From the NCBI GenBank assembly GCA_021838945.1, contig JAKCCH010000001.1, positions 7,974-71,973 of the forward strand: a stretch of 64,000 bases of DNA, read 5' to 3'. This document shows, one piece after another, positions 30,654 to 50,894 of this stretch. The DNA comes from Actinomycetes bacterium. Lineage in GTDB: Bacteria > Actinomycetota > Acidimicrobiia > Acidimicrobiales > Bog-793. Below the pieces are notes generated by a model, which saw nothing but the letters and a program-made list of their open reading frames with translations, had not been told where the DNA came from and did no database searches. Positions within the stretch are counted from its first letter, which is position 1, and each line of letters opens with the position of its first letter. The translations under genes were made by a program, and so were the position numbers.

Positions 30654-33600
30654 TCAGCCGGGCGCGATGCCGACCACCTTCGAGCCCGGCCGGGAGAAGG
30701 AACCGATCCGCTTCGCCGATCCGAACCCGTAGACGACGCCGTTCGCCGAGACGAGCCAGTAACCCGTGCCGTGCGGCCCTTCAGCCATCCCGGTGACCGG
30801 AGACTTCGGAGCTGTGCGCTCCTCGCCATAGGACTTCGCCGTCCCGAAACGGTAGACCTTGCCCGTCGACGTCGCGATCCAGTACCCGGTCCCCTCGGCA
30901 TCCGGCACGAGTGCCACGGCCTTGCCGGAGAGCTGCGCCGGCGACTTGAACGACTTCACGTTCCCGAAGTGGTAGACGGCACCGTTCGAGGCGAGGAGCC
31001 AGTACCCGGCGCCGGAGGGAGCCTCCGCAACGCTCACGATGGGGTACTTCGGCGCCTTCTTCAGATCGCCATGCGACTTCGCCGTCCCGTAGGCGTACAC
31101 GATGCCCTTCGACGTGACGAGCAGATAGCCGTCACCCTTCGGGGCAGCCGCGATCCCGACGACGGCCGAGCTGAGCTTGGTCGGGTGGCCGCGGGCCTTG
31201 GCCGCGCCGAACGCGTAGACCTGCCCGGTCGAAGTCGCCACGAAGTAGCCGTGGCTCAAGAGCGAGCCGGAAGCCGGCGCCAGAGCGGCGATGCCGACCA
31301 CCGTCCCCGAGGGCCGCGGCGAACCATACGGCAATGCCGACCCGAAGCTGGCCACCTTGCCCTTCGCCGTGACCAGCCAGTAGCCGGGACCGGTGTTGGG
31401 CACGACTTTCAGCGAGAGCGCGGTCGTGACGGTGCTCGCGGGTGTGTCGGAGTCGGAGACCTTGACGCTGAAGCCGTAGGTCCCGGTGTGAGTCGGCACT
31501 CCTGAGATGAGGCCGGCCGACGAGAACGAGAGCCCCGGAGGCAGGTGGCCGCTCGTGAGCGACCAGTGGTACGGCGCGACTCCACCGGTCGCCTGCAGCG
31601 TTCTCGAATAGTGCAGCCCGATCGTTGCGTTCGGCAACGTCGAGGTCGTCACCGCCAGCGGTCCGGCGTAGGTGAAGCGATCGGCGGACGACGTCACAGA
31701 AGACCCGTCCGGGCTCGTCACGGTCACGTCCACGGTTCCCGAACCCGGCGGTGCCGTCGTCTCGATCTGCGTGTTCGACTGCACCACGAAGCTGATCGCC
31801 GCCGTCTTTCCGAACAGCACGCTTGTGGCGTAGTCGAACCCGGTCCCGTCTATCTCGATGAGCGAGCCACCGGCCGAAGTGCCGGCGTGGACTGACAGAC
31901 CCGTCACCGTCGGTGGCGAGATGTAGGTGAACTGGTCCGATGTGCCCGTCGCACTCGTCCCACCCGCACCGGTCACCGTCACGTCCACGGTGCCGCTCCC
32001 CGCCGGTGCCACGACGTTGAGAGTCGTCGAGGACACGAAGCTCACCGACGTAGCCGCGGTCGATCCGAACGCGACCGTCGAGGTCGGCGAGAAGCCCGTG
32101 CCCTCGACCGAGACCGTCGTGCCGCCCTTGGCTGGCCCGGTCGATGCGGAGAGCCCGGTCACCGTCGGTGGCTGCGGGTTCGGCTCCGACTGACACGTCA
32201 TCACGAGCGTCAGCCCGTCCTGTGGCGGTGGCACGTCGAAGGGAGACGTGACGACGTCGCTGACCGAAGGCTGGCCGGGCGCGTAGCAACCCGTCTTCGA
32301 GGCTTCGATCTCGTACCAACCGGGGACCACGTTCCACGCGAACTGCCCTCCGGCGTTGGAGATCTCCGGGTTCGTCGAGGGCTGCGTGACGACCGATCCC
32401 GATGGGATCGCCTGGTACGGCCCTGCTGCGCCACCGGACGCCGACCCGAGGATCGTGACCGTCGCCCCCACGATCGGGTTCCCCTTGTCGTCGAGCACCG
32501 TTCCGGACGGGTCGATGTACATGTTCCAGAGCTTCTGGAGGAGGTTGAGCGACGCGCCGAGAGCGAGGTCCATGATGTCGGTCGGCACCTGTGCGACAGC
32601 ACAGGCACCCCCGATGATGCCGCCCGGCTGGGCCGAGGAGCACCACATCGAGAAGGCCGTGAGGGCGATCCCGCCGACCGGCCCGAGAGCGAAGTCGAGG
32701 AAGCTGCTCTCGAGGGAGCTGTCGGCCATGACCTCCGCGAGCGTGTCACTCAGGCTCCCGAAACCGCCCGCGAAGTCCTCTTCCTCGGCGATGTCGCTCG
32801 CGAAGACGTCGCCGTTCATGAGCGACATGAGGTTGTCGCCGATGGACAAGCTGTTGCCGATCCAGTCCGTGCTGCCGTTCCATTGCAGCACCGCCGTCCA
32901 GTTGCCGCTGTTGTCCGGCGGGGTGTTGCCCTGCGTCACCGCATACGTCGCGGAGCTCGAGAGCGACGAGAGGACGGCGCTCGGGTCCGGCATGGTGCCG
33001 CCGAGCCCCTCCGACAGCGGTGGCGCGTTCGAGATCGACTGCGCCGGAGGCGCATCGCAGAAGGAGAGTCCCGAGGTCGGACACGACGTCGGCGTGCCGG
33101 TGCTCGGCGGGGTCGGTATCTGCTGAGGGGTCGACGGAGTCGGCGCCGTCGCCGAGTAGGCGAACTGGTCGGCACTCGAGGTGGTGCTCGTGCCCCCGCT
33201 CGTCTCGACGGTGACGTCGACGGTGCCGGCGCTCGAGGCCGGCGGCACGTAGGCGATGATCTCCTGATCGTTGACGACGCTGAAGATCGAGCGTGTCGAC
33301 CCGAAGAACACCTGCTGGGCGGTCGTGAATCCTGTGCCGCTGATGAGAACTGTCCCTCCGCCGGACACATTGCCGCTAGCAGGTGCCACTCCGGTGACGG
33401 AGAGGTAGGTGAACGTCGCGAGCGAGCTCGGGGACGTCGTTCCCGACGGCGTCGTCACGGTCACCGACACCTGGCCGGAACCGGGCGGGCTTACGGCTGT
33501 CACCTCGGAGTCGGACACGACCGTTACATCGGCGGCGGCGGCGCTTCCGAAGTGGACGGCGGTGGCCCCGGTGAAGCCGTGGCCGAAGATCGTCACCTTC

Positions 33601-36600
33601 GTGCCGCCGGACGTCGGCCCGGCGTAGGGCAGCACTGCCGAGAGCGGGGCGCAGTACACGAACGGCGCCACGGTGACGTTGCCGTGCACGGGCGCAAGCG
33701 GCGGGATGGAGCCGGTGTAGCTGCCGGAACCGGGCGGGCTCTCCGTGAGAGGGACGTCGCGCACGATCGTCGTCCCGGTCTGGGTGTCGGTGCCCTGGAG
33801 GACGGCATCGGCCATCCCTCCCGGGCAACCGGTCACCGTGACTGTGGACGCCGACCCCCAGAAGATGGTCGGCACTCCGCTCGTCTGTCCGTTCACGCTT
33901 ACGCCGGACGGGATCGTCGCCTCCGGCGCCATGTCGACGACGATGCCGGTCGCACTCGACCCGGCACTGACCGTCACAGGACCGTACGCGGCCGCCTGGA
34001 GCGCCGAGGAGCTGCCGGGACCGCCCATAGGTGGTGGGGTCGCCTGGAGCTCGTAGGTCCCAGCAGGCACGGCGATGGAGAACTGGCCGGTGGAGCCCGT
34101 CGTCCCCCCGGACACGCACTGACCACCACTCGTCGGGCACGCCTCGACCATGACGCCGCTCACGGCGGACGTCGAGCCGGCGTTCGTCGTCTCGGCGGTA
34201 CCGGAGATGGCGTCCCCGGACAGGTTCGGAGCGGTGAGCGAGACCGGCACGAGGTCCGAGGACGTCCACAACTCGGCCGGCTCACTCGAGATGACCGGCG
34301 GGTTGGTCACACCGGTGAGGGTGACGACCACCGAGTCGCCGGCGTTCACCGTCGTGTGGGTGGTAACCGTCACTGCGGACCCGTCCGCCGCGATGGACGC
34401 CGGATCGCACGACGAAGAGCGGTTCCTCGTGGTGTCGTCGACGGTCGCGCACCACGAACCACCGTTGTTGCCGAACGCGGTTCCCGCCGGGGCGAGAAGG
34501 GTCACGGTGCCCGATCCGTTGGCGAGCGCTCCGGTGGAAGACGCGGTGAACCCGACCGAGTACGTGACACCTGACTGGCCGACGGCGCCGGAGGAAGTCT
34601 CGAGGCTCCCGGACGCCGGCGTGCCGGCAGCCACGAAGGGGACCGCGTTGCTCACCGCAGGAGTCGTGTCCGAGCTTGTGGCTACCGACATCGAGTCCCC
34701 GGATCCGGACGGCGGGTTGGTGACGCCTGCCATCTCGACGACGAGGGAGTCGCCGGCGTTGATCGTGAACCCGGACGGCACGATGAAGACCGCCGCTGCG
34801 CCCCCGGCGAACAGGCTCAGGTTGTCGACGCAGCTCACCGAGTGCGTGTTGGTCGTATCCGTGACGGTGTAGTCGCAGTTGTTCCCCGAGAGGCGGGTAC
34901 CGGGGGCGCCGAGCAGCTCGACGACTCCTTCGCCGTTCGCCATCTCACCTGTCCCCGATGCGGTGAACTTCAGCGTGTAGCTCACGTTGGCGGCTCCCGC
35001 TGCGGTGGAGGAGACCGCGAGGGCCGGCGTCGAGACGGAGCCCGGCGTTGCCAGCGCCACCGAGGCCGAGGCAGCGACCGGGTCCGACGACGTCGACACC
35101 CCGATCGAATCCGGCGTCGTGGTCGGGTTGGTGGTTCCCGTCACCACGACTTGGACGCTGTCGCCCGGATTGATCGTGAAGCCCTCGTTCGTGGTGATGA
35201 CGACGGTCGAGCCGCCGTCGAGGACCTGCGGGCTCGACGCGCAGTTCTGGCTGTGCTGGGTCGTGACGTCGGTGACCGTGTAGTCGCAGCCGGTTCCGGG
35301 CCACTGCATACCGGCGGACCCCTGGAGCTCGATCCAAGCCTGCTGCCCGAGAGCGCCGGTCGAAGAGGCGGTGAAGCCGAGAGACGCAGTGACGTCCCCG
35401 GCACCGGCCGAGGCGTCGGAGAGGGTGGCGGAGACGCTCGACGGGGCGACGGGGGCCGTCAGCGACGCGCTCACCGCTACGGGTGCGGAGTCAGCCGTCG
35501 TCCAGAGCTCGAACGAGGCCGAGCCGGGCGTCGAGCCGGTGATGTCCGACGGCGGGTTGCCCATCCCGACGATCGCGACCTCGACCACGTCCCCTGCGGC
35601 GATGTCGAGGCCGTTCGGGGGAGAGAAGCTCACGATCTCCCCGGATGCGTTCACCGACAGGTTCCGGACGCAGTTGGCGGAGTGGAGGTTCGTCAGGTCG
35701 GTCACGGTGTACCCGCAGTTGTTGCCGGGGAACGTGACGCCTCCGCTGCCCACGATGGAGACGAGGTCGTTCGGACCGTCGAGAGCGCCAGTGGCGGACG
35801 CTGTGAAGCCGAAGGTGCCGGTCACCCAGCCGGCGCCCGCAGCCGTGGTCGAAAGAGACACCGATGGGCTCGACACAGACGAGCCGCTCGAGAGCGTGAC
35901 CGGCGACGAGGCGACGGGGACCGTGTCGGTCGAGGTCCACACGCTGACAGCAGCCGACGAGGCATCCGGATTGGTCATTCCCGGCAGCGTCACCTGCACC
36001 TGATCGCCCGGACGGATGGCGAAGGCGTTCGTGGAGACGGTGAGCTCGTCGCCGACCCAGGAGTCCGACAATCCCGAGACGCAGCTCGTGCTGTGCAACG
36101 TGGACAGGTCCGTCACCGTCACCTCGCAGCGGTTCCCCGCGAGGCCGGTTCCCGGCGGTGTCTCGATGACGATCCCGCCATTCGGTTGGATCCCACCGGT
36201 GGAGGAGGCCGTGAACGTGACCGTCCAGGTGGTGTCCGCCCTCCCGGCGATCGGGTCCGACACTGCGAGGCCGAGACCTGACACCGACTGCGCAGAGCTG
36301 AGGCTCAGCGCCGGGGACGCGACAAGGCCGGGGTCAGCGCCCGTGCCGATGGTCACGCCTTCGCTGCTGCTCCCCCCGGTGCTCTGGACGTACGGCGCGT
36401 TGATCTCGAGCTGGTCGCCGGCCGCGCTCGCGAACCCGTTCGTGCCGAACGTGAGGATTTCGCCATGCGGGCCCATGAGGCTCGCATGCGCGCTGTCGTT
36501 GCAAAGCTGCCAGGAGGCTCCGCTCGTGACGTCGGTCATCGTGTAGTCGCACATGTTCCCGTCGCCGAAGACCAGGCCGGACGAGAGCTCGATCGTCACC

Positions 36601-39600
36601 GGATTGCCCGCGGCTGCAGCCGTGGTCTCCGTCCAGGAGATCGTGGCGTTCGTCATCAGTGCTCCCTGCGCCACGCTGGCGAGCGAGAGGACCGGCGACG
36701 AGTCGGCGGCCGGTGATGCCCCACCCGTCAAGGAAACGCTGTTGGTGAGCGCGAACACGGTGTCGGAAGCCGTCATCACCTGGAACTGCTGCGACGTGGT
36801 CTTCGGGTTGACGGCATTCCTGGCCAGGATCTCGATCTGGTCCCCGGCGTTGATCGGGAACGGTTCCGTGATGACGAGGACGTTGTTGTCCACGCCGACG
36901 CCTAGACAAGTCGTGCTGTTGCTGGTCGTGATGTCATCCCACGTGTAGTCGCAGCCGTTGTTGGACCAGGACGTCCCCGGCACCCCGACGATCGTCACCG
37001 AGCTCGGGGTGTTTCCCGCAACGGCACCTTGGCTGGAGGCGGTGAAGTCGATCGTGTCGGTGACGCTGCTAGCGCCTGCCGCCGCTGACGAGAGAGAGGC
37101 AGAGGCCGCCGAAGGGGACACCGGGGCTGCGAGAGTGACCGCCGGAGCCGCTGCGGGAACCAGATCCGAGTTCGTCGAGACCGACAGGTCCTCGGTCGCC
37201 AGTGTGGTGTTGACCGCTCCGGTGATCGCGACGGAGACCGTGTTGCCTGCACTGATCGCGAACTGCGGCATCGCGATGTCGACGGTCGAGGGCGACGGGA
37301 AATTGAGGATGAGGCACTTGGAGGCGGTCTTCGTCGTCACATCGGTGACCGTGTAGTTGCACCCGTTGCCCGGGAACGACGTACCAGGCGATGCCCGGAG
37401 CTCGATCGCGCCGTCGCCCTGCGACGCATAGCTGCCTAACCCCGTCGTGGCGACGAACGTCGCCGTGTCGACGATGCCTGCAGCACCCTCCACCGGCGTC
37501 GACACGCTGAGCGACGGGCTCGTCACGGATGTACCGGTGGAAAGAGAGATCGAGCTCGACGTGCTTCGCACCGTGTCGGAGGAGGTCCAGACGGTGAGCT
37601 TCTGTGTCGAACCCGGAGGGTTCCACCCACCGATGATGGAGAGGGACACCGTGTCCCCGGCGTAGACGGTGAAGCCACTCGGCAGGGGGATGTCGACCGA
37701 GCTCCCGCCTTGGCCGATCGAGACGGCTCCGAGACAGCCGCTCGACGTGGTCGTGGTGACGTCCTCGATCTCGTAGAAGCAGTTATTCCCTCCCGGGAAG
37801 TTGGTACCCGGAACACCCTGTACCTCGATCGCTCCTGAGCCGCCTTCGAGAGCTCCGTCCGAAGAGACTTTGAACGTGACGGATTCAGTGACCCCGCTGG
37901 CCGCGCCGACGGCCGGGGTGACGGTGGCCGAGGAGAGCGAGACTGCCGAAGCCGCAGCGATCGTGACCGCCGAGGTCGTCACCGGGACGAGGTCGGACGA
38001 CGTCGACATCGTGACCGCAAGGCTCCCGGCCCCGGGATTGGTGACGTTCGTGACCGTGAGGATGACTTGATCGCCGGCACGGATGGCCAGCGGGACGGTC
38101 ACCGTGACACTGGACACCCCGTTCGAGATGCCCGGCGAGCATCCGCTCAGGCGCTGCGTGGTGACGTCGTCGAACTGGTAGTCGCAGCGGTTTCCCGGGA
38201 AGGCCGTCGGGTAGGTGCCCGCAAGCATGACGGTGCCATCGCCCGATGCGAGGCTCCCGATCGACGAGGTCGTGAACTCGAGGGTCATCGTGACCCCGGA
38301 TGCCCCCGCCGCCTTGCTCGAGAGCGTCAGCGCCGGCGAGGCAGGGGTCACCGACGTCGGCGCTGCGAGCGCCACCGACGTCGAGGCCGGCACGGTGTCC
38401 GAATCCGTGGAGACCGACAGGGTCATCGCCGCCACGGTCGGGTCGAGCACGCCGGACACCGTGAGCTGCACCTGGACACCCGCTGCGATGGACAGGTTGT
38501 TCGGAAGCGACACGGTCACGGCCGAGGAACCGCTCGGGCCACCGGCCGAGTCGAGGTTGGCACACCCGGTGCTGCCCGTCGACTGATCGGTGACGGAGTA
38601 CCCGCAATTGGCAGAGCCGGGGAAGGCGGTTCCCGAAGGACCCATGAGCGTGATCGCGCCGAAGCTCGGCTGGAGCGCACCGTTGGACGAAGCCGTGAAG
38701 GCGATCGTGTCCGTGACCTCGCTCGCGCCCTGCGCCGTGGTCGACACGACCAGGCTCAAGCCACTGACGCTCTGCGGCGCAGCCAGGGTGACGGCCGGTG
38801 AGGTGGCAAAGATGCCGTCCGAGACGGTCGCGACCGAGATGCTCGTGCTCGCGAGATCGGGGTTGGACACGTTCGTCGCCGTCACGGACACGGTGTCGCC
38901 CGGATTGATCGCCACGCCGGAATAGACGGTCATGATCGACCCGTCTCCCGCGAAGCTTGCGGAGTTGCAGTTCCCCGAGCTCTGCCCGGTGGTGAGATCG
39001 TCCACGGTGTCGCACTGACCGCCGGCGTTGAACACGGTCCCGACCGGCGCGACGAGAGTCACTCCGCCGCCGCTCGGCAGCCCGCCATCAGAGGACGCCG
39101 TGAAGCCGACCGTGTAGGTGGTTCCGGTCGCTCCCTCAGCCGTGGTGGAGAGTGCGCTCGACACGTTGCTCACCGAGCTCGTGATCCCAGGGGTACCGCT
39201 CAGCACGACCGTCTGGGTCTTCGCGGCCAGTGAGTCCGAGGAGTCGTTGAGGCTGAACTGCTCGCTGCCTGCCGACGCGTTTGTCACTCCGGACACCACG
39301 ACGTTGAGGTTGTCCCCTCCCGAGGTGCTGACCGACGGTGGCAAGGTGAAGCTCGCCGTGTTGCCGCCGTTGCCGACCGTCAAGGACCCGACGCAGTCAC
39401 CCGACTTCCCCGAGGTCACATCCTTCACCTCGTACTGACAGGCGGTCGACGGGAAAGTCGTGCCGCTCGGCGCCGAGATCGAGAACGTGCCTTCGCCGCC
39501 GACGAGCCCGCCGTTCGGCGAGCTGTCCAAGCCGAAGCTGTACGTCACGCCCGAAGCCTGACCGACGAGGCTCGACAAGCTCGCGGTGGCGTTCGCGACC

Positions 39601-40127
39601 GCCTGTGGTGGCGCGATGGTGAGCGCAGCCGACGGCGCGGCAGTCGTGTCAGACGAAGTCGAGACCTGCACCACGTCCGATCCGGCCGGCGGGTTCGTGA
39701 CACCGACCGCCGTGACGGTGACGGCGTCTCCGGCGCCGATGGCGAGAGCGCTCGGGAGGGTGAGGGTCGCTTCGCTCCCGCCGTTGGCGACGATGACGGT
39801 CGGGCAGTCAGCCGAGCTCGTCTCCGAGTTCGTCGTCGTGTCGTCGATGGTGTACGCGCAGCCCGTCGACGGGAACGACGTCCCAACGGCCGCGGACAGG
39901 GTGACCGTCCCGGACCCGCCGGCAAGCGAGCCCGAGGACGACGTCGTGAACGACACTGCATAGGTGACGCCGGTCGCCTGACCCGCAAGGCTCGTGAGGG
40001 CGGGCGTCACGACCGTGACGGTCGACGCTGCGGCGGTCGTCGATGGCAGGACCGCGATCAGGCCGGCGACGGCCAATGCCGCCCCGGCGCGATACAGGTG
40101 ACGTCGTACAGGACCAGACCCTCGCAT
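30654..40127 (-). CDS. giant secreted multidomain surface protein (3157 aa)
   Basis: An uninterrupted 9.47-kb ORF starts at ATG 40127 after agggggttaggac. Its signal peptide is MRGSGPVRRHLYRAGAALAVAGLIAVLPSTTAAA. The domain order is 14 Cys-pair modules, carboxypeptidase-regulatory-like segments, 4 IPT/TIG-like domains, an He_PIG-like Ig domain and C-terminal GYW...FG repeats. I see no LPXTG motif and no C-terminal TM anchor. Confidence 0.9.
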   Translation of the reverse strand: MRGSGPVRRHLYRAGAALAVAGLIAVLPSTTAAASTVTVVTPALTSLAGQATGVTYAVSFTTSSSGSLAGGSGTVTLSAAVGTSFPSTGCAYTIDDTTTNSETSSADCPTVIVANGGSEATLTLPSALAIGAGDAVTVTAVGVTNPPAGSDVVQVSTSSDTTAAPSAALTIAPPQAVANATASLSSLVGQASGVTYSFGLDSSPNGGLVGGEGTFSISAPSGTTFPSTACQYEVKDVTSGKSGDCVGSLTVGNGGNTASFTLPPSVSTSGGDNLNVVVSGVTNASAGSEQFSLNDSSDSLAAKTQTVVLSGTPGITSSVSNVSSALSTTAEGATGTTYTVGFTASSDGGLPSGGGVTLVAPVGTVFNAGGQCDTVDDLTTGQSSGNCNSASFAGDGSIMTVYSGVAINPGDTVSVTATNVSNPDLASTSISVATVSDGIFATSPAVTLAAPQSVSGLSLVVSTTAQGASEVTDTIAFTASSNGALQPSFGAITLMGPSGTAFPGSANCGYSVTDQSTGSTGCANLDSAGGPSGSSAVTVSLPNNLSIAAGVQVQLTVSGVLDPTVAAMTLSVSTDSDTVPASTSVALAAPTSVTPASPALTLSSKAAGASGVTMTLEFTTSSIGSLASGDGTVMLAGTYPTAFPGNRCDYQFDDVTTQRLSGCSPGISNGVSSVTVTVPLAIRAGDQVILTVTNVTNPGAGSLAVTMSTSSDLVPVTTSAVTIAAASAVSLSSATVTPAVGAASGVTESVTFKVSSDGALEGGSGAIEVQGVPGTNFPGGNNCFYEIEDVTTTTSSGCLGAVSIGQGGSSVDIPLPSGFTVYAGDTVSLSIIGGWNPPGSTQKLTVWTSSDTVRSTSSSISLSTGTSVTSPSLSVSTPVEGAAGIVDTATFVATTGLGSYASQGDGAIELRASPGTSFPGNGCNYTVTDVTTKTASKCLILNFPSPSTVDIAMPQFAISAGNTVSVAITGAVNTTLATEDLSVSTNSDLVPAAAPAVTLAAPVSPSAASASLSSAAAGASSVTDTIDFTASSQGAVAGNTPSSVTIVGVPGTSWSNNGCDYTWDDITTSNSTTCLGVGVDNNVLVITEPFPINAGDQIEILARNAVNPKTTSQQFQVMTASDTVFALTNSVSLTGGASPAADSSPVLSLASVAQGALMTNATISWTETTAAAAGNPVTIELSSGLVFGDGNMCDYTMTDVTSGASWQLCNDSAHASLMGPHGEILTFGTNGFASAAGDQLEINAPYVQSTGGSSSEGVTIGTGADPGLVASPALSLSSAQSVSGLGLAVSDPIAGRADTTWTVTFTASSTGGIQPNGGIVIETPPGTGLAGNRCEVTVTDLSTLHSTSCVSGLSDSWVGDELTVSTNAFAIRPGDQVQVTLPGMTNPDASSAAVSVWTSTDTVPVASSPVTLSSGSSVSSPSVSLSTTAAGAGWVTGTFGFTASATGALDGPNDLVSIVGSGGVTFPGNNCGYTVTDLTNLHSANCVRNLSVNASGEIVSFSPPNGLDIAAGDVVEVAIVGMGNPPSDITGSTPGSASFELWTTADSAPVAVSASLTAPVAPSSVSATLSDASAGAGDVTASLGFTASSTGALGQQAWIELQGSAGMQWPGTGCDYTVTDVTTQHSQNCASSPQVLDGGSTVVITTNEGFTINPGDSVQVVVTGTTNPTTTPDSIGVSTSSDPVAASASVALATPGSVSTPALAVSSTAAGAANVSYTLKFTASGTGEMANGEGVVELLGAPGTRLSGNNCDYTVTDTTNTHSVSCVDNLSLFAGGAAAVFIVPSGFTINAGDSLVVEMAGVTNPPSGSGDSMSVATSSDTTPAVSNAVPFVAAGTPASGSLETSSGAVGQSGVTYSVGFTASSTGALANGSGTVTLLAPAGTAFGNNGGSWCATVDDTTRNRSSSCDPASIAADGSAVTVTTHTTVNAGDSVVVTLTGVTNPPVISSEPAELWTSSDLVPVSLTAPNLSGDAISGTAETTNAGSTSAVSGVMVEACPTSGGQCVSGGTTGSTGQFSIAVPAGTYELQATPPPMGGPGSSSALQAAAYGPVTVSAGSSATGIVVDMAPEATIPSGVSVNGQTSGVPTIFWGSASTVTVTGCPGGMADAVLQGTDTQTGTTIVRDVPLTESPPGSGSYTGSIPPLAPVHGNVTVAPFVYCAPLSAVLPYAGPTSGGTKVTIFGHGFTGATAVHFGSAAAADVTVVSDSEVTAVSPPGSGQVSVTVTTPSGTTSPSSLATFTYLSVTGVAPASGNVSGGGTVLISGTGFTTAQQVFFGSTRSIFSVVNDQEIIAYVPPASSAGTVDVTVETSGGTSTTSSADQFAYSATAPTPSTPQQIPTPPSTGTPTSCPTSGLSFCDAPPAQSISNAPPLSEGLGGTMPDPSAVLSSLSSSATYAVTQGNTPPDNSGNWTAVLQWNGSTDWIGNSLSIGDNLMSLMNGDVFASDIAEEEDFAGGFGSLSDTLAEVMADSSLESSFLDFALGPVGGIALTAFSMWCSSAQPGGIIGGACAVAQVPTDIMDLALGASLNLLQKLWNMYIDPSGTVLDDKGNPIVGATVTILGSASGGAAGPYQAIPSGSVVTQPSTNPEISNAGGQFAWNVVPGWYEIEASKTGCYAPGQPSVSDVVTSPFDVPPPQDGLTLVMTCQSEPNPQPPTVTGLSASTGPAKGGTTVSVEGTGFSPTSTVAFGSTAATSVSFVSSTTLNVVAPAGSGTVDVTVTGAGGTSATGTSDQFTYISPPTVTGLSVHAGTSAGGSLIEIDGTGFDYATSVLFGKTAAISFVVQSNTQIETTAPPGSGTVDVTVTSPDGSSVTSSADRFTYAGPLAVTTSTLPNATIGLHYSRTLQATGGVAPYHWSLTSGHLPPGLSFSSAGLISGVPTHTGTYGFSVKVSDSDTPASTVTTALSLKVVPNTGPGYWLVTAKGKVASFGSALPYGSPRPSGTVVGIAALAPASGSLLSHGYFVATSTGQVYAFGAAKARGHPTKLSSAVVGIAAAPKGDGYLLVTSKGIVYAYGTAKSHGDLKKAPKYPIVSVAEAPSGAGYWLLASNGAVYHFGNVKSFKSPAQLSGKAVALVPDAEGTGYWIATSTGKVYRFGTAKSYGEERTAPKSPVTGMAEGPHGTGYWLVSANGVVYGFGSAKRIGSFSRPGSKVVGIAPG
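30657..31388 (-). repeat. six C-terminal repeats of about 40 aa (GYW[LI]V..G.V..FG.A...G), beta-propeller-like
   Basis: The six units are GYWLVTAKGKVASFGSALPYGSP, GYFVATSTGQVYAFGAAKARGHP, GYLLVTSKGIVYAYGTAKSHGDL, GYWLLASNGAVYHFGNVKSFKSP, GYWIATSTGKVYRFGTAKSYGEE and GYWLVSANGVVYGFGSAKRIGSF. Confidence 0.7.
34215..40022 (-). repeat. 14 tandem protein modules of about 135-140 aa with a conserved Cys pair (diverged at DNA level)
   Basis: The recurrent pattern is ...G(A/V)T(Y)...F(T)ASS.G.L..G.G.V.L....GT.FP....C.Y.V.D.T.....C....V....A.......I.AGD.V.V...GV.NP. Cys-pair examples are CAYTIDDTTTNSETSSADC, CDYTVTDVTTQHSQNC and CDYTVTDTTNTHSVSC. Confidence 0.8.
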
Positions 40128-40233
40128 GTCCTAACCCCCTGCCTGAGCACGATCACTCGTGACCGAATCGGACTAGCGCAAAGCTGCCGCGCGATTCCAG
40201 AAGGCAAGACGCGCGCCCTTGACGTGCCGCCCC

Positions 40234-41961
40234 TCAGCTTGGAGAGACGGGGGAGGCAAGCGCGGCGGCGATCTCACGGATCGAGGCCAGCCGAGCCGAC
40301 ACGCTCTCCCGCACGTCGGCATCGAGGTCCTGCCGCGACTCGAACGCGCTGTTCGCCTCCTCGAGCGCCGCCCGGGCGAGCGCCAACACCTGGCTTCTGC
40401 CGGCTGCGAAGGCGACGGCTTCGACCTGCTCGTCCTCTTCGCGCAGTTCTGTCGCGAGGCGCTCCGTCTCGCGAGCCGCTGCGCGAGCGAAGACGTCCAT
40501 GCCGACCATGGCGGCTGCGGGATGCCCGAGCGCGACCGCAAGGTCGATAAGCGAGCGCGGCCGGTCTGCAAGGACATAGGCGAGTGACGCGACGACCATG
40601 AGCGACCCGAGGGCGGCGCGTCGGTCCCGGGCCGAGAGATGCTGGCGGTTCGCCGCCAGCAGGATCCCGGCAGGGGCGATCCCGTAGGTCCCCTGGAACA
40701 GGTGACGGCCGAACTGGTCCCGCCGCACCGAGCAACCTCGCAGGCAGATCGCTCCCTGGAGCACGGCAAGCAGAGTGGCCGTCATCTGCGAGCTCCGCGC
40801 CGACGCCTCCTGTGCCCGCCCCAGGTTGGCGAGCCCGCCTGCGGCGAAGGCGGCGGAACACAGGAGCGCCTGCGACATCGGGAGGGCCCCGTCCGTCGTA
40901 CGGGTGGGCATGAGCGCTGCCCAGGCTCCGAAGAAGAAGGCCGGAGGTGCCGGATTGAAACGGTCGACGGTCGCAGCGGGGTCCGCCGGTACCTCGATCA
41001 CCTCGTCGTTCACGAGAAGGGAGAAGGCACGTCCGGGCCGTGTGCCAAGCGATGCCCCTCGGAGCACCTCGACCGTCATGCGGCCGCGCAGAGCTCGCTC
41101 TTCGAGCAAGTCGGCCAGCGCCCGCGCCTGATGCCCCGTGAGCAGGGTTGTCCCGTCGCCCTCTGCCACCGCGACGTCGACGTAACCGTCGAGGTCTGGG
41201 TGGTCGTTGTGTCGTTGCTGCCAGAGGCGGACCGCTGAGTCGAGGAAGACGGCGTGCTGCCGGGCCTGTTGGGCGAGGCTGTCCCGCCACCCGGCACGGA
41301 CTTTGTTCAGGGCGGAGTCGGGGTCGTCCGCCTCGAGCAGGATGGCGACGGGCTTCAGCTGATCGACGATCGTGCTGGCTCCCATCGCCACGTCGTGCTG
41401 GCCGGCGAGGAAGGCGCGGACCCGCTTCGCGGCGAGCTCCGCTTCGTGGATCTCGAGCGCACGCTGGAGACGGCGGCGCTCGCCACGGCGCACAGCCATG
41501 CCACCGATGACGGCTCCGACGTGTGGCACCCCCTGAACCGGGTCGGGGCCCTGACCGGTCACCGAGCGGGCGACGCTGGCGACGGCCCCCGCAAGCAGGG
41601 GCACGACCAGACCACGAGGCCCGTGCGCGACGCCGGCCTCGAAGTCCATCGCCACGAGCCCCGTGAGAGCAGTGGTGAGGTCCGCTTTCGCGGGCCCGGC
41701 CCAGAGGGCGATGTCGGCAAGGTCGATCGCGAGGCGCCTGGCGAGGGAGAGCCTCGATCGGCGAATCGCGCGCCACTCGAGCACGTCGAGGGTGCCGGCA
41801 GCAGCGAGGACAACCGCGCGCAACCGCATTGCGGAGTGTTTCCGGATCGCGGCCAGCTGCAGGCCGCGGGCGAGGGCCCGGTAAGCGGCATGGATCCGTG
41901 CCGAGTCGCGAGGGGCGAGAGCACCCGGCCCGGACCAGTTGGACCAAACGCTGCGTCTCAT
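40234..41961 (-). CDS. polytopic membrane protein with central degenerate histidine-kinase-like (DHp-like) segment and C-terminal coiled coil
   Basis: ATG at 41961 (MRRSVWSNW) forms an ATGA overlap with the stop of the upstream receiver gene, giving 575 aa. Hydrophobic segments sit on both sides of a soluble core of about 200 aa. That core contains AAKRVRAFLAGQHDVAMGAS, which resembles a HisKA_3 H-box; the His codon is at 41395-41397. I see no N or G boxes. The track start at 42114 is rejected. Confidence 0.6.
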   Translation of the reverse strand: MRRSVWSNWSGPGALAPRDSARIHAAYRALARGLQLAAIRKHSAMRLRAVVLAAAGTLDVLEWRAIRRSRLSLARRLAIDLADIALWAGPAKADLTTALTGLVAMDFEAGVAHGPRGLVVPLLAGAVASVARSVTGQGPDPVQGVPHVGAVIGGMAVRRGERRRLQRALEIHEAELAAKRVRAFLAGQHDVAMGASTIVDQLKPVAILLEADDPDSALNKVRAGWRDSLAQQARQHAVFLDSAVRLWQQRHNDHPDLDGYVDVAVAEGDGTTLLTGHQARALADLLEERALRGRMTVEVLRGASLGTRPGRAFSLLVNDEVIEVPADPAATVDRFNPAPPAFFFGAWAALMPTRTTDGALPMSQALLCSAAFAAGGLANLGRAQEASARSSQMTATLLAVLQGAICLRGCSVRRDQFGRHLFQGTYGIAPAGILLAANRQHLSARDRRAALGSLMVVASLAYVLADRPRSLIDLAVALGHPAAAMVGMDVFARAAARETERLATELREEDEQVEAVAFAAGRSQVLALARAALEEANSAFESRQDLDADVRESVSARLASIREIAAALASPVSPS

Positions 41962-42704
41962 TCGTGCCGCGAACGCTCGATCCGCGCCACTGCGCTCCAG
42001 AACTTCCTCAGCTGGACGATCGAAGGAGCCTCGAGGTGCATCGCCGGGTTTCCCGTCGCGTTCACCGGCCTGAGGCCATGACGCCCTGACGCGAGCAGGC
42101 GGACCCGGCTCCACCAGCGCGACCGTTCGCCGTGAGGATCTGCCTTCTTGCGTGCGCCTGCGTGCAGCACGGACTCGAGGTCCTCGGCCGCCAGCCGGTC
42201 GACTATCTCGTTCACCCGCGTCGCCGGTGTGATGCCGACGCCGGGCGGAAGGCTGCTTCCCGGCGGGCGCTGGAGCCTCCGGTGATCATCCGGGCTGACT
42301 ACGACCGAGACCAGCTCCTGCTCGGTCATGCCTTCGTCGCGGGGGTAGAAGAAGTCTGCACCCGCCTCCCACATGCGGTGTCGCAGCCCTGGATGCAGGT
42401 ACTGGCCCGTCAGCACGACAACGGTCACGGCGACCTGCAGTGAGCGGATCGACCTCACGACCGCCACGCCGGGGAACTGGTCGCCGCTCCGACGCGCGTC
42501 CGATGCGTCGACGACGGCCACGTCGACGCCTGTCCACTCCTCGCGCCACGACAGCGCCTGCGCGTGGTCGACTGCAGCGACGAGGTCGATCTCGGGGGCA
42601 CCGCGGAGCACAGCCGCCGTACCGGCGCGCATGACCGGGTCGTTGTCCACGACGACCACTCGTCGCCGCTCTTCGGGCAGACCCATCTGCACAGGACTGG
42701 TCAT
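41958..42704 (-). CDS. receiver (REC) domain protein with uncharacterised C-terminal domain
   Basis: ATG at 42704 follows aaggggg. The protein has VVVVDNDPVMR, VAVVDASD (phospho-acceptor Asp context) and VVVLTG, but GADFFYPRD sits where the conserved Lys is expected. I recognise no HTH in the C-terminal 110 aa or so. Confidence 0.65.
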   Translation of the reverse strand: MTSPVQMGLPEERRRVVVVDNDPVMRAGTAAVLRGAPEIDLVAAVDHAQALSWREEWTGVDVAVVDASDARRSGDQFPGVAVVRSIRSLQVAVTVVVLTGQYLHPGLRHRMWEAGADFFYPRDEGMTEQELVSVVVSPDDHRRLQRPPGSSLPPGVGITPATRVNEIVDRLAAEDLESVLHAGARKKADPHGERSRWWSRVRLLASGRHGLRPVNATGNPAMHLEAPSIVQLRKFWSAVARIERSRHE

Positions 42705-42939
42705 GAGCGACGCCGCCCCCTTGCCGAGGCTCAGGATAGCGCCGGATCCGACCCAGATGCTGGCGCCACGGATCACTCCACCGAGAAGAAAACCGATGCC
42801 CACCACCGTCCAACGGCAGCTCGGCCGACTCTGCTCCAAAGCCACGCTACCGACGCGGGCTCGCCGTCTTCGACGCCGATGCCTTCGACGCGCTGCGGGT
42901 CTTCGGAGCAGGACGCGTCGAGGTTCGGCGAGACGTCCG

Positions 42940-43700
42940 TCGCGCCGCGCGTCCGGCAAACAGGTAGCCCGGGACGCCCCGGTCGAACTCGAGGAATGCG
43001 ACGACGGTGTCCATTCTCTCGATCCTGGCGGCGAAACGCTCGCGATCGATAAGGCGCAGCCGAGTCGGAGGTGGCTGAGAAGCCGGGCGCAGCTCTGGTG
43101 GCAGCTCGTCGGTGGTCTCCGAGCTCAGCATCGAGTTGCCGTCCTCGACCGTCACGACGTGGCGGACCCCGAACCTCTCGTAGGTACCGGCATAGCGGGA
43201 CAGATCGAGGTCGGGAGGGCTGTCGGGTGGCTTCAGCGGCTCGGCCATGTGCACGCCGGCCAGCTCTTCGAACAACCAGCGGGCGAGGTCGCGCCACAAC
43301 GATCCTCCGCCCGTCGAGTTGGTCAGGAGGGCGATCACCAGTCCCTCGTCGGGGAGGCACTGCAGAAACGACAGCTGCCCGATCGTCCCGCCGCCGTGAC
43401 CGATCACGCGCTTGCCGTCCCACTCCTCCATCAGCCAACCGAGACCCATGCTCGCCGGGGGCGCTGTAAAGGTTGTGGCTGTCGACCTGCGTCTCTTGCA
43501 TGGCCCGGGCCGCCCCGGCCGACAGGACCGAGGTCTCGTCCGGTGCCACCCCCTCATCCAGGTGCATCGGACGTACCTCGCGAGTCCGTCGTCGTCTCCA
43601 CTCCCGTGTCGACGCTGAGGACCCCGGTCGCGAAGTCGAGGAGCTCCTCCCCCCGTTTGCCCTGTTCGGAAGGCGCGCACCCAATGAGTACCGTTCACAT
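42940..43700 (-). pseudogene. serine hydrolase (beta-lactamase-related) gene remnant, 5'-truncated and frameshifted
   Basis: The C-terminal half is readable: ...NLYSAPGEHG in one frame, then MGLGWLMEEWDGKRVIGHGGGTIGQLSFLQCLPDEGLVIALLTNS... in another, with the shift near 43445-43460. The N-terminal half that should carry the SxxK motif is missing where the ABC exporter gene starts at 43701. Confidence 0.6.
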
Positions 43701-45479
43701 GTGAGCAAACCCGGCGGACGATCCTTCGCGTCCGCGTACCGATCGCTCTGGCGTTTGCGCTCCTTCGTCCGTCCCTACAACCGCCAGATGCTGGTGATGC
43801 TGGCCTGTGCCGTCATCGCCGTGGCTGCCAGCACGCTGATCCCGCTCGTCCTCGAAGCGGTCGTGAACGGCCCCATCCACCACCACAACCGCGGCGCGCT
43901 CGTCCCGATGTTTCTCCTCGCCCTTGCTCTCGGCATGGTCGAGGCCGGGCTCATCGCCGCCCGCCGGCGGGTGCAGTCGGTTGCCATCCAGATGGTCGAG
44001 CGCGAGATCCGCAACGACCTGTACGCCCGCCTCCAGCGGTTGCCCGTCGCCTTCCACGACGAATGGCAGACCGGCCAGCTGCTCTCGCGGGCCACGACCG
44101 ACCTCGGGACGATTCGGCGCTTCCTCGGCTTCGGCGCCATCTACTTCGTCGTCGACGGCATGCAGTACGCCGTCGTGATGGCCCTTTTGTTCGCGACCTA
44201 CGTGCCGCTCGGCGCCGTGGCGCTCGTGACGACACTGCCCGTGATCTGGATGGCGAAGCGCTTCGGTGCCGGTTACTCCCACATCTCGCGGCGCGTCCAG
44301 GACCAGCAGGGCGACCTCGCCACGATCACGGAAGAAGCGGCGACCGGCATGCGTGTCGTGAAGGCCTTCGGGCGAGGGCCGCTCATGCAGGACCGCTTCG
44401 GAGTCTCGGCGCGAACCCTGCGGTCTTCGTCTCTCGAGCTCGTGAGGCTGCGCGCTCGTTTCTGGGGGTGGCTCACGCTCGTCCCGAACATCACCATGGC
44501 GGCGGCCGTCCTCGTCGGCGGGATCGCAGTGGCACAGGGCTCGCTCAGCGTCGGAGCGCTCGTCGCCTTCACGACGCTTCTCGTGCTCCTGCAATTCCCG
44601 ATCATCGACCTCGGTTGGATCCTGTCGATGGCGCAGCAGGCCGCCACGGCCGCGGACCGCGTCTGCGAGATCTTCGACGCCACCATGTCCATCGACGACC
44701 GTCCGGGCGCTCTGACGCTCGGCCAGTCGACCGGCCGCCTCGCCTTCGAGCACGTGGGCTTCACCTTCCCTGGGAGTGACCGCGCCGTGTTGCGCGACGT
44801 CAACCTGACGATCGAACCCGGTGAGACGGTGGCGATCGTCGGCCTCACCGGCTCGGGCAAGAGCTCGCTCGCCGCCCTGCCGGCCCGCCTCTACGACGTC
44901 ACCTCCGGCCGGATCACGCTCGACGACATCGACATCCGCGACCTCACTATCGAGTCGCTCCGCCGGCACGTCGCAGTCGTCTTCGAGGATCCGACCCTCT
45001 TCTCGATGAGCGTGCGGGAGAACATCGTCCTCGGGCGCCCGGACGCGACGGGCGACGAGATCGCGGAGGCGCTCGACATCGCGCAGGCGGGGTTCGCCTA
45101 CGACCTGCCGTGGGGCCTCGACACGCGCGTGGGCGAGCAGGGCCTCGCCCTCTCGGGCGGCCAGCGCCAGCGCCTTGCACTCGCCCGGGCTGTGATCTCC
45201 CGACCCTCCGTGCTCGTCCTCGACGACCCGCTCTCCGCCCTCGACGTCAACACCGAGGCGCTCATCGAGGAAGCGCTCGGGCGCGTCCTTCAGAAGACGA
45301 CCGGTCTCATCGTCGTCCACCGTCCCTCAACGGTCGCCCTCGCCGACCGTGTCGCGCTCCTCCAGGACGGCGTCCTCGTCGCCGTCGGCACCCATCACGA
45401 GCTGATGGAGCTGCCGGCGTACGCGTCAGTGCTGTCGGTCGACTTCACCTCGCCGCCCGAGCCGTCGAGGACACCATGA
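43701..45479 (+). CDS. ABC exporter, fused permease-ATPase (heterodimer subunit A)
   Basis: GTG at 43701 gives 592 aa. A six-TM domain is followed by Walker A GLTGSGKSS, the signature [14 protein letters not shown] and Walker B LVLDDPLSALD. Confidence 0.85.
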   Translation: MSKPGGRSFASAYRSLWRLRSFVRPYNRQMLVMLACAVIAVAASTLIPLVLEAVVNGPIHHHNRGALVPMFLLALALGMVEAGLIAARRRVQSVAIQMVEREIRNDLYARLQRLPVAFHDEWQTGQLLSRATTDLGTIRRFLGFGAIYFVVDGMQYAVVMALLFATYVPLGAVALVTTLPVIWMAKRFGAGYSHISRRVQDQQGDLATITEEAATGMRVVKAFGRGPLMQDRFGVSARTLRSSSLELVRLRARFWGWLTLVPNITMAAAVLVGGIAVAQGSLSVGALVAFTTLLVLLQFPIIDLGWILSMAQQAATAADRVCEIFDATMSIDDRPGALTLGQSTGRLAFEHVGFTFPGSDRAVLRDVNLTIEPGETVAIVGLTGSGKSSLAALPARLYDVTSGRITLDDIDIRDLTIESLRRHVAVVFEDPTLFSMSVRENIVLGRPDATGDEIAEALDIAQAGFAYDLPWGLDTRVGEQGLALSGGQRQRLALARAVISRPSVLVLDDPLSALDVNTEALIEEALGRVLQKTTGLIVVHRPSTVALADRVALLQDGVLVAVGTHHELMELPAYASVLSVDFTSPPEPSRTP

Positions 45480-50300: not shown

Positions 50301-50894
50301 CTTGGCGGACAGGTTGACCGCCGCCTCGCCGGTCGCCACGCCGGCGCGGAGCGAGAGGCCTTCCTTGTGGATCTCCTCGCCGAGCATCGAAATGGCCTGT
50401 GTCAGATCGAGTGCCGTACGGACTGCACGCTCCGCGTCGTCCTCCTGCGCGACTGGAGCCCCCCAGAGCGCCATGACGGCATCCCCGATGAACTTCTCCA
50501 CCACCCCGCCGTACCGCTCGACGAGTGCTGTGCAGGTGTCGAAGTACTTCGAGAGCAGCTCGCGCACGTCCTCTGGGTCGGCCGGCTCGGAGAGGCTCGT
50601 GAACCCCACGAGGTCGGCGAAGAGGACCGTGACAAGGCGCCGCTCCGCGACCGGCGCCGCACTTGGGGTACCGCCCATCGCAGCCTCGTTCGCAGCTCCC
50701 GGCACACCGGAGCTGGGCGCACCACTCGTCGCCCGCACACCGTTGGCGACAGGCATCCCGCACTCCGGGCAGAACCTGGCGACGGCATCGAGCAGCTCAC
50801 CGCAGGACAGGCACTTCCGGGCGAGCGTGGTGCCACAGCCGTGGCAGAACTTCGCGCTCTCCTTGTTCGAGGTACCGCAGCTGGAGCAGATCAC
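47310..50894 (-). CDS. double zinc-ribbon / class III adenylate-guanylate cyclase / AAA(STAND-like) ATPase / TPR regulator
   Basis: GTG at 50894 starts the ORF. There are four CxxC pairs in the first 47 aa and a cyclase homology domain (LVTVLFADLVGFTSLSE...KFIGDAVMALWG). A P-loop (VSGIAGIGKSRL) and a long TPR-like C-terminus follow. The protein is 1194 aa with no terminal HTH. Confidence 0.85.
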   Translation of the reverse strand: MICSSCGTSNKESAKFCHGCGTTLARKCLSCGELLDAVARFCPECGMPVANGVRATSGAPSSGVPGAANEAAMGGTPSAAPVAERRLVTVLFADLVGFTSLSEPADPEDVRELLSKYFDTCTALVERYGGVVEKFIGDAVMALWGAPVAQEDDAERAVRTALDLTQAISMLGEEIHKEGLSLRAGVATGEAAVNLSAKGQGMVAGDLVNTASRIQSAAAPGTVLVSDATRRMTEAAISYKDAGTHTLKGKEEPVQLFEAVRVVAGVGGLMKSTGLEPPFVGRDRELRFVKDLFHATAEDRKAHLIQVSGIAGIGKSRLSWELFKYIDGLSAISWWHRGRCLSYGEGVTYWALAEMVRGRAGILEGEERASALGKLHETVVEHVEDEEERRFVEPRLAQLIGLEDRTSTDKTELFSAWRLFFERLAKSYPVVMVFEDMQWADPSLVEFIDHLLDFSRSHPLFVMTLARPETETTETRRRNVTSIYLEPLDPDSMGALLDGFVPGLPAELRTKILDRSEGVPLYLVETVRMLLDKGLLVREGPVYQPVGEISALEVPETLHALVASRLDQMPLAERLLVQDAAVIGKSFTRQALVALTGGEDEVLETLLSSLVGKEVFSIQLDPRSPERGQFAFVQDLMRTVAYETLSRHDRRRKHLDAAEYLERAWGQDEEEIIEVVASHLLSAYLLDEGADDAPRIRDRARGMLVRAGERAASLAAGEEAEGYFDKAAPLSDSVLERAELTERAGQMAELRGRVEDALERYGQAVRLFEEAGQTHQAARCEARSAGVEYQIGQLDRAVGRMLRAAEMMGSDEPDPDVATVSAQLGRMLALADRAEEAAPHLEHALELGELLELPEVYSQALNSKAVFLLRRNRLDEAGVLLRRALEVAIEHDLSGAALRAYNNLGVALETRDRCADTFELVERQRDLAHRVGDRFWEINCLAGAVGNLVCLGRWDQALAWADEAMSADEFTTLRSIANSVLDGVIVHVHRGHLDAAGELVEAAGGVNVAEAAEYRTARAGILAVLWRARGELETALASAMEAFGALQVLGLTNTRVKGGLVLAADIALELGDAERVDELLAVVQAARPGEVTPWLRAQTARLSARLAAARDENDAVEPGFEAAEEILRRLGFAFDLAVVQLEHAEWLFVSGRSDDAEPLRAAASETFAGLRAAPWLERLGRLGAESVPASVTPA

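Follow-up and report, generated by a model that had tools for sequence, protein, structure and literature searches.

A pseudo-receiver gene translationally coupled to a membrane protein without kinase features in Actinomycetota

Receiver-fold regulators can be controlled by contact with a sensor that is encoded next to them, as in the AmiC-AmiR and NasS-NasT systems, and the pseudokinase DivL acts likewise with DivK. The outputs of AmiR and NasT are ANTAR RNA-binding, and the partners in those systems are either soluble ligand-binding proteins or bona fide kinase folds. According to a 2025 review of pseudo-receivers (PMC12632262), replacement of the second residue of the acidic DD pair (DD2) by Asn and of the Lys by Arg are common in this group, phosphoryl transfer is not necessarily lost through such substitutions, almost every atypical regulator that has been characterised is an orphan, and the on/off switching of bacterial pseudo-receivers "remains a mystery". 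Here we describe a receiver (REC)-like protein and its membrane partner, encoded side by side in a 64,000-nucleotide stretch (the window) of the genome of an Actinomycetes bacterium of the order Acidimicrobiales (assembly GCA_021838945.1, contig JAKCCH010000001.1, positions 7,974 to 71,973). A reading made from the letters of the stretch without database searches (the sequence-only reading) had called the two a pseudo-two-component pair, and the label is a fair one. By every test run here, on sequence profiles and on structural models, the membrane partner is not a histidine kinase, which makes it probable that the pair signals by some route other than classical His-Asp phosphotransfer. We propose, with about even confidence, that the partner is a membrane transducer of a non-kinase type and that it acts through direct contact on a transcription factor, the pseudo-receiver. 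The two genes are the following:

41958..42704, minus strand: gene of the 248-aa pseudo-receiver, with the ATG at 42704 taken as the start
40234..41961, minus strand: gene of the 575-aa membrane partner, its ATG overlapping the REC stop codon (ATGA)

The stop codon of the REC gene and the start codon of the partner gene share the ATGA at positions 41958-41961, and the translational coupling already claimed from the letters is supported. The two genes are adjacent, in either order, in 14 of 15 distinct related loci, the exception (L013) being a locus that ends within the partner gene. A hidden Markov model search of the 15 fetched loci (14 distinct, L002 being a near-duplicate of L001) likewise found them adjacent wherever the flanking sequence allowed. 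Genome loci were searched for with a 20-sequence alignment of the partner, an 81-member alignment being too diverse for the purpose. In addition to that, 15 of the 25 partner homologues found by word index, with identities down to 32%, lie on contigs whose size is also that of a contig with a REC homologue. For the REC-like protein 143 homologues were counted at E <= 1e-3, and an exhaustive profile search extended the partner family to 385 representatives at 50% clustering, nearly all of 560-610 aa. As to the start of the REC protein, a longer public gene model (P0026; NCBI/Logan/ENA) begins further upstream and gives 281 aa, and the N-termini of the REC homologues align near MTSP...RRVVVVDND.

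The order of the genes differs between clades. The REC gene precedes the partner gene in the window and in L001, L003, L004 and L006, which make up the window's clade (with 4-bp overlaps in L001 and L003), and the partner gene comes first in L005, L007-L011, L014 and L018, a more distant clade of Acidimicrobiia with overlaps of 1-4 bp, and in Actinomadura madurae too. The named genome matches are metagenome-assembled genomes of Acidimicrobiia, Acidimicrobiales and Actinomycetes, and REC homologues are named from Actinomadura and Actinoallomurus as well. The translationally coupled pair is real and evolutionarily conserved in Actinomycetota. Inspection of neighbouring genes in the window and the examined loci showed no histidine kinase gene near any module, and a regular-expression search of the window and L001-L015 for a HisKA_3 kinase found none. 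At the Actinomadura madurae locus (L017 6116-7958, GCA_024348985.1) the match between the family profile and the partner gene is spread over three reading frames, and the gene has been called as two hypothetical proteins of 306 and 268 aa. A naturally "split" partner was considered there and rejected, the gene being a frameshifted single one, and its frame breaks are either assembly frameshifts or the mark of a pseudogene.

The REC-like protein consists of two parts:

42330..42665, minus strand: CheY-like receiver fold, residues 14-125 (AlphaFold2, Foldseek, hhalign, residue counts)
41961..42287, minus strand: C-terminal domain, residues 140-248, the proposed DNA-binding output (AlphaFold2, alignment, charge)

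That the first part adopts the CheY fold, a check proposed in the sequence-only reading, was confirmed by the AlphaFold2 model. Built on 32 homologues, it has a predicted local distance difference test score (pLDDT) of 88 and a predicted template modelling score (pTM) of 0.86. In Foldseek the receiver superposes on the NarL/DesR/RcsB group, the best match being the receiver of M. tuberculosis NarL (3eul), with a template modelling (TM) score of 0.83, a root-mean-square deviation of 2.6 A and E 9e-8. In the Pfam comparison residues 16-118 fall on PF00072 with E 3.6e-5 (24.3 bits, under the gathering score of 30.2 bits), a precomputed PF00072 match is present on some of the REC homologues, and NCBIfam gives weak matches of the NarL, FixJ and MadR types alone. 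Judged by the E values of PF00072 and of Foldseek, that is by profile and by model, the similarity to REC domains exceeds chance.

The motifs reported from the sequence, namely the acidic pocket VVVVDND (residues 16-22), the acceptor context VAVVDASD (Asp66, codon 42507-42509), VVLTG with Thr99, and GADFFYPRD, were all found. In the hhalign alignment to E. coli NarL, D20 falls on D13, D66 on D59 and GADFFYPRD on GADGYLLKD, so that Arg122 (codon 42339-42341) takes the place of Lys109. The invariant Lys is indeed missing, as had been claimed, position 122 being Arg in 117 of 118 REC homologues and never Lys. The same 118 all have D66, and 117 of them have T99, the remaining one having Ser. DD1 is conserved in 102 of 103 homologues; DD2 is Asp in 74 and Asn in 29, and the Asn form is that of the window's clade, the window itself having D20-N21. 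The fold, the acceptor Asp and the Thr of a receiver are thus all in place; the DD pair is incomplete, the Lys is replaced and the Pfam gathering score is not reached. The beta3-alpha3 loop is extended and almost invariant (D69, D75, Q76, F77, P78, G79), and H47, W57 and R108-x-R110-M111 in alpha4 are invariant as well. Because the Lys is replaced by Arg and DD2 by Asn, the REC protein is, on its residues, a pseudo-receiver by the definition of PMC12632262, with the acceptor Asp retained. The invariance of Asp66 and Thr99 suggests that it probably still uses some phosphoryl chemistry, or Mg2+/phosphate binding. The REC half belongs to a known class of pseudo-receivers; the partner and the pairing are new.

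The C-terminal part, approximately 110 residues, is modelled by AlphaFold2 as four helices and a beta-hairpin. It is strongly basic (pI 11.5; net charge in the family +6.5 +/- 2.2), and R194, R196, W198, R202, Q231 and G157 are invariant or nearly so. The absence of a recognisable helix-turn-helix (HTH), remarked on earlier, holds: Pfam at E <= 1 gave no GerE or HTH match, and when the protein was aligned by hhalign with full-length NarL the receiver aligned and the C-terminal domain did not. It is plausible, and to us most likely, that the domain binds DNA.

The membrane partner was divided as follows:

41482..41913, minus strand: N-terminal helical membrane bundle, residues 17-160, probably six transmembrane helices (AlphaFold2, hydropathy, loop charge, conservation)
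41362..41433, minus strand: conserved segment of long helix 1, residues 177-200 (AAKRVRAFLAGQHDVAMGASTIVD), motif copy 1 and the "H-box" of the sequence-only reading
40957..41289, minus strand: alpha/beta domain, residues 225-335, put in the cytoplasm (model, conservation)
40492..40950, minus strand: C-terminal helical membrane bundle, residues 338-490, about six hydrophobic helices (model, conservation, hydropathy)
40255..40491, minus strand: long helix 2 and terminal helix, residues 491-569, mildly acidic, holding motif copy 2

The H-box-like stretch (AAKRVRAFLAGQHDVAMGAS, residues 177-196, His189 codon 41395-41397) is present and lies between two clusters of hydrophobic helices, as had been noticed and as both hydropathy and AlphaFold2 indicate. 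It had led to the view that the partner is a degenerate sensor kinase, with lack of conservation of the His among homologues named in advance as the observation that would speak against it. In 123 full-length homologues position 189 is His in 27 (22%), Asn in 64, Ser in 11 and Ala in 6, and the best-conserved His of the partner in the same set is H251 (63%). There was no kinase signal either, and this part of the sequence-only reading is not supported. Searches of the partner against Pfam, NCBIfam and PADLOC gave no match. When 81 diverse members of the family were compared with Pfam at E <= 10, no HisKA, HisKA_3 or HATPase_c appeared among what was scattered noise only. Aligned by hhalign with a profile of 28 HisKA_3+HATPase_c sequences, built from relatives of NarX, the family reached a probability of 0.24%, and the partner aligned with NarX alone reached 0.4%. 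Profile searches of all PDB sequences with alignments of 20 and 116 sequences returned no kinase and nothing below E 0.98, and Foldseek of the partner model against PDB gave no kinase among the 50 matches listed. A resemblance of the C-terminal coiled coil to the tails of bacterial sodium channels (E about 1) was judged compositional and set aside.

The claimed loss of ATP-binding motifs stands as far as the lack of any HATPase signal is concerned, and it needs one refinement, for the partner does carry a conserved Asn (N252, 92%) and a G-x-G-T, which are not arranged as the N and G1 boxes of a kinase. Directly ahead of the GxGT, 53% of the members have Glu and 27% have Pro. For a sensor kinase the topology is as unusual as had been said, with a helix between two membrane bundles and no ATP-binding motifs. 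In the secondary structure of the model the two long helices each continue from the last transmembrane helix of a half; given this homology of the one helix to the other, a parallel course is to be expected of them, which differs from the hairpin of a DHp domain. A literature search on the partner family returned nothing specific.

The AlphaFold2 model of the partner has a pLDDT of 86 and a pTM of 0.77. Its first half contains the helices 17-39, 45-67, 73-88 and 95-134 and a 68-residue helix (141-208), which is followed by the small alpha/beta unit 225-335. The second half contains the helices 338-348, 362-378, 384-409, 428-437 and 444-464, a 72-residue helix (471-542) and a final helix (548-569). 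Averaged over the family, hydropathy peaks clearly five times within the first cluster and six times within the second, and the loops are very short; loop 85-103 is almost without Lys or Arg, and 61-83 is rich in them. Hydropathy, loop charge and the AC9-like match described below together suggest that the partner is probably a 6+6-transmembrane protein, and a cytoplasmic central domain requires that the Arg-rich helix 17-39 spans the membrane.

Conservation of the partner is strongest in the cytoplasmic helices, in the alpha/beta domain and at the charged residues of the first bundle (D59 100%, E108 96%, R32 95%, R76 95%, R28 89%, D80 88%); relative to the first bundle the second one is poorly conserved. 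In the alpha/beta domain the conserved residues are W247, N252, P255, D256, L257, G268-x-G270-T271, Q278 (93%) and G293 (97%), and neither Pfam on the 81 members nor hhalign detected a Bergerat, HATPase or cyclase signature in it. The protein is internally duplicated: hhalign pairs residues ~134-204 with ~464-538 (probability 77%, E 2e-5), placing RAFLAGQHDV (182-191) against VAFAAGRSQV (516-525). The second copy of the shared motif AFxxG[Q/R]xxV is AFAAGRSQV (residues 517-525, nucleotides 40387-40413), in which G521 is conserved to 99%, and in long helix 1 G187 is conserved to 98% and D200 to 100%. Because of this alignment of half against half, the "H-box" is seen as copy one of a duplicated unit of last transmembrane helix and long helix. 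Its small invariant residues (A178, A183, G187, A192 and G194, with G521 in copy two) would, as far as sequence can tell, fit helix packing better than phosphotransfer. The acidic coiled coil described at the C-terminus corresponds to the helices 471-542 and 548-569, a long helical region which, with a net charge of -6, is mildly acidic.

Two variants of the partner were seen among its homologues. In P0282 (849 aa) residues 171-571 of the partner are followed by YukD and EccD domains of type VII secretion; it may be a genuine fusion, or else the product of reading through from one gene into its neighbour, and it hints at a link to secretion machinery. In one subclade, approximately 10% of the homologues (among them P0022, P0023, P0147, P0159, P0165 and P0197) have a Ser/Thr-rich tail (..SSSSTTTS), which is absent from the partner in the window.

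Downstream of the pair are an inverted repeat and a giant gene:

40188..40216, minus strand: GC-rich inverted repeat GCGCGCGTCTTgccttctggAATCGCGCG, candidate operator, in the 106-bp gap between the partner stop and the start of the giant gene
L001 11731-11758, L003 11727-11755, L004 11741-11767, L006 7562-7588 and L014 14250-14276: copies of the repeat at related loci
30654..40127, minus strand: giant IPT/TIG gene of 3157 aa (Pfam TIG E 6e-34), starting 106 bp past the module

The repeat was revealed by phylogenetic footprinting of otherwise diverged intergenic DNA, and its consensus is roughly sCGCGCG-TTTC-N8-GAAW-CGCGCGs. The pattern GCGCG-N11-17-GAAWCGCGCG occurs once in the 64-kb window, with 0.08 expected, and among the fetched loci it is found only in L001, L002, L003, L004, L006 and L014. 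In the window, L001 (as a perfect 12-8-12 repeat), L004 and L006 it sits after the partner stop and before the start of the next gene, whereas the L003 copy is contained in the 3' end of the partner gene itself. Weaker related elements are found in the other clade upstream of the partner gene, in the promoter region (L005, L007, L008, L011, L014, L018). Readings of the repeat as an RNA element or a terminator found no support in the window, where there was no terminator call and no Rfam match and where its RNA fold is unremarkable (z = 0.18). A generic inverted-repeat score did not separate these sites from GC-rich background, and the repeat is put forward as a candidate operator only. In the gap between partner and giant gene an identical 13-nt string, AGTCCGATTCGGT, is also present in the window (40150-40165, minus strand) and in L006 (~7541-7553), to one side of the inverted repeat in the window and to the other side of it in L006.

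The 3157-aa protein is made up of many repeats of ~95 residues, with four IPT/TIG matches and a C-terminal series of GYWLV..G.V..FG, and by eye its N-terminus is signal-peptide-like. An orthologue of the giant gene with 60% identity follows the module in L006, and L004 has a 2977-aa TIG protein. Genes for secreted or surface proteins adjoin the module elsewhere too: besides the giant TIG genes of the window, L004 and L006, there are CHAP genes downstream in L003 and upstream in L014, and NosD/beta-helix genes in L005 and L008. We take the giant IPT/TIG gene to be probably the regulatory target of the module. In four loci of the Acidimicrobiales clade, L005, L007, L008 and L011, a divergent gene of an XRE-type protein (HTH_3/HTH_31, 310-330 aa) lies directly upstream of the module:

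L005 3103-4038, L007 7024-8007, L008 6859-7785 and L011 6835-7812, minus strand: XRE genes

Upstream of the REC gene in the window, the open reading frame directly next to it (42847-43698, minus strand) covers only the last ~70 of the 329 positions of the Pfam Beta-lactamase profile and is probably what truncation or decay has left of a serine-hydrolase gene. Divergently from the module run two genes in tandem (43473-45479 and ~45476-47308, plus strand), which have, by eye, the Walker A and signature motifs of ATP-binding cassette exporters. Approximately 4.6 kb upstream, 47313-50894 (minus strand) encodes a 1194-aa protein with an N-terminal double zinc ribbon, a class III Guanylate_cyc domain, AAA_16 and TPR repeats; no link between this cyclase protein and the module was found.

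The data establish a two-component-like module without a kinase: they show the folds, the conservation of residues, the lack of kinase features, the internal duplication, the strict pairing of the genes and the conserved repeat, whereas physical interaction, direction of control, DNA binding and target gene are proposals. Taken as a mechanism, the direct-contact reading would run as follows. The partner would have been built by duplication of a unit of transmembrane bundle and long cytoplasmic helix, with the alpha/beta domain inserted after the first helix. It would serve as the input device and sense within or at the membrane, since the first bundle has buried charges and the very short loops leave no external domain. 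The signal would pass via the paired long helices to the cytoplasmic face, where the partner would bind the receiver-like protein through its conserved cytoplasmic helices and alpha/beta domain and so control its availability or conformation. Control might be exerted by sequestration and release, or by modulation of an inefficient phosphorylation or dephosphorylation at Asp66. Once set free or activated, the regulator would then act on the GC-rich inverted repeats beside the module, and in the genome of the window the output would be the giant secreted IPT/TIG surface protein encoded downstream. More broadly, it is possible, though to our mind doubtful, that the partner family is a new class of membrane transducers that control receiver-fold regulators without His-Asp phosphotransfer, either by conformational coupling through the duplicated helices or by an undescribed phosphoryl chemistry at the alpha/beta domain.

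Several observations weigh against this reading. The full conservation of Asp66, of Thr99 and of the greater part of the acidic pocket speaks for continuing selection on phosphoryl chemistry, and the contact between the REC protein and the partner is one that we infer. Pfam, Foldseek and hhalign relate the C-terminal domain of the REC protein to none of the known DNA-binding folds. The cytoplasmic placement of the central domain depends on helix 17-39 being a transmembrane one, which is deduced from hydropathy, loop charge and the AC9-like match. As to the output, a metagenome scan for the perfect palindrome CGCGCGTTTC-N8-GAAACGCGCG returned 12 unrelated loci, none with the module, and two of these (L020 and L025) are T-flanked hairpins resembling terminators; the strict form is therefore not diagnostic for the module. 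The giant gene is seen to accompany the module only in rather close relatives, with partner identities of 59-67%, and in the Acidimicrobiales clade the XRE protein could bind the repeat instead and may be a third component.

Of the other explanations the one that survives best, though we consider it unlikely, reverses the direction of control. The membrane protein would be the effector, for example an ion- or substrate-translocating or envelope-remodelling one, and the REC protein its cytoplasmic regulator, phosphorylated by an unlinked kinase or by acetyl phosphate. The binding of CheY to FliM is an example of a single-domain receiver acting on an effector, and such effector-binding single-domain receivers give this explanation a precedent. 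Conserved charges in the first bundle (D59 at 100%, R32, R76, E108) are typical of translocating proteins, the phospho-acceptor site is intact, and the partner has no sensory extracytoplasmic domain. The REC protein, however, has an additional 110-residue domain, strongly basic and highly conserved, which resembles an output domain and not an adaptor. Furthermore, conservation of the partner is poor in the second membrane bundle and highest in its cytoplasmic parts, and the conserved repeat beside the module suggests a transcriptional output.

Quite unlikely, in our estimate, is that the partner is a dedicated, signal-controlled phosphatase or sink for the phosphorylated REC protein, which would be slowly phosphorylated by small-molecule donors. 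N252, Q278, D200 and Q188 would then be inserted into the receiver site in the mode of CheZ, CheX, Rap or the DxxxQ motif of HisKA_3. The receiver phosphatases known are helical proteins that work with a Gln, an Asn or an Asp, and residues of these very types are conserved on the cytoplasmic helices of the partner. The REC protein for its part retains Asp66 and Thr99 together with Arg122, and replacing the Lys does not necessarily put an end to phosphoryl transfer (PMC12632262). The argument is nevertheless one of residue type: neither a DxxxQ nor an ExxN motif stands in register, Q188 is just 79% conserved and aligns with Arg in the duplicated copy, and neither Pfam, the PDB profile searches nor the listed Foldseek matches include a phosphatase family similar in sequence or fold.

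Very unlikely is the last alternative, that the partner is a highly diverged functional kinase or phosphotransferase which phosphorylates Asp66 from a non-canonical residue or nucleotide site, for example with the alpha/beta domain (N252, GxGT, Q278) as a lid-less relic of a GHKL ATP-binding domain: the logic of a two-component operon, in which a NarL/DesR-type REC normally pairs with a HisKA_3 kinase, the strong selection on the phospho-site residues and a succession of helix with conserved Asn, strand, GxGT, helix and three strands that by eye loosely recalls a CA domain speak for it, but no His is conserved (63% at most, 22% for His189), the Glu or Pro before the GxGT leaves no conserved adenine-binding Asp, the G2 box, F box and lid are absent, none of the 81 members matches HisKA or HATPase_c and the hhalign probability is the 0.24% given above, no kinase is among the PDB sequence matches or the 50 listed Foldseek matches, and the "H-box" is a duplicated packing motif.

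Should the partner family prove to be such a new class of membrane transducers, the partner would be a dedicated upstream input device of a kind undescribed for any bacterial pseudo-receiver family, one that is widespread in Actinomycetota and may govern the expression of cell-surface proteins. The module poses the question of whether a receiver fold is regulated by a membrane protein through contact alone or through new chemistry. As a pseudo-receiver with an obligate co-translated non-kinase partner it makes pseudo-receiver regulation directly testable, and its carriers include two genera of which named species are in culture, Actinomadura and Actinoallomurus. With the module comes an uncharacterised family of membrane proteins with a duplicated layout like that of adenylyl cyclases (385 clusters at 50% identity), and the module suggests how the giant surface proteins of uncultured Actinomycetota may be regulated.

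In its genetic layout the module resembles DesK-DesR, NarX-NarL and LiaS-LiaR, which are likewise encoded by adjacent, overlapping and co-oriented genes and have a membrane partner with long cytoplasmic helices. As in NarL/FixJ-type pairs, the receiver is closest to those of NarL, DesR and RcsB and keeps the acceptor Asp and the Thr. Unlike in NarL/FixJ regulators, there is an Arg for the Lys, the beta3-alpha3 loop is longer and the LuxR/GerE HTH is lacking. Unlike HisKA_3 kinases, the partner has neither a conserved His nor a HATPase_c domain, in keeping with its profile probability of 0.24%, and its conserved helix is duplicated and lies between two transmembrane bundles. With the pseudo-receivers BldM/WhiI, GlnR, ChxR, HP1043 and FrzS the REC protein shares a receiver that has lost active-site residues, and it is probably a transcription factor (PMC12632262). 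The Asp, the Thr and DD1 are invariant in the pseudo-receiver of the module, and its output domain matches no known type. Orphans make up nearly all of the atypical regulators that have been characterised (PMC12632262), whereas the one described here comes with a membrane partner that is strictly conserved and translationally coupled to it.

The best, although weak, Foldseek match to the whole partner model among the matches listed is the adenylyl cyclase AC9 (PDB 7pd4/6r3q; E 2e-3, TM score 0.37). Like AC9, the partner would, on its model and hydropathy, have two helical membrane bundles with a long cytoplasmic helix after each of them, and it shows signs of internal duplication; unlike AC9, it has one small alpha/beta domain and no class III cyclase domain. 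Pfam Guanylate_cyc matched none of the 81 members, and hhalign of the partner with the class III cyclase domain from the window gave 0.06%. The likeness to AC9, seen on the model, is best regarded as architectural, homology not being demonstrated. By analogy with AmiC-AmiR, NasS-NasT and DivL-DivK, control is proposed here to be exerted through contact with a sensor encoded by the neighbouring gene, without His-Asp transfer. Unlike AmiC, NasS and DivL, the partner in this case, a member of an undescribed family, is probably a 12-helix membrane protein.

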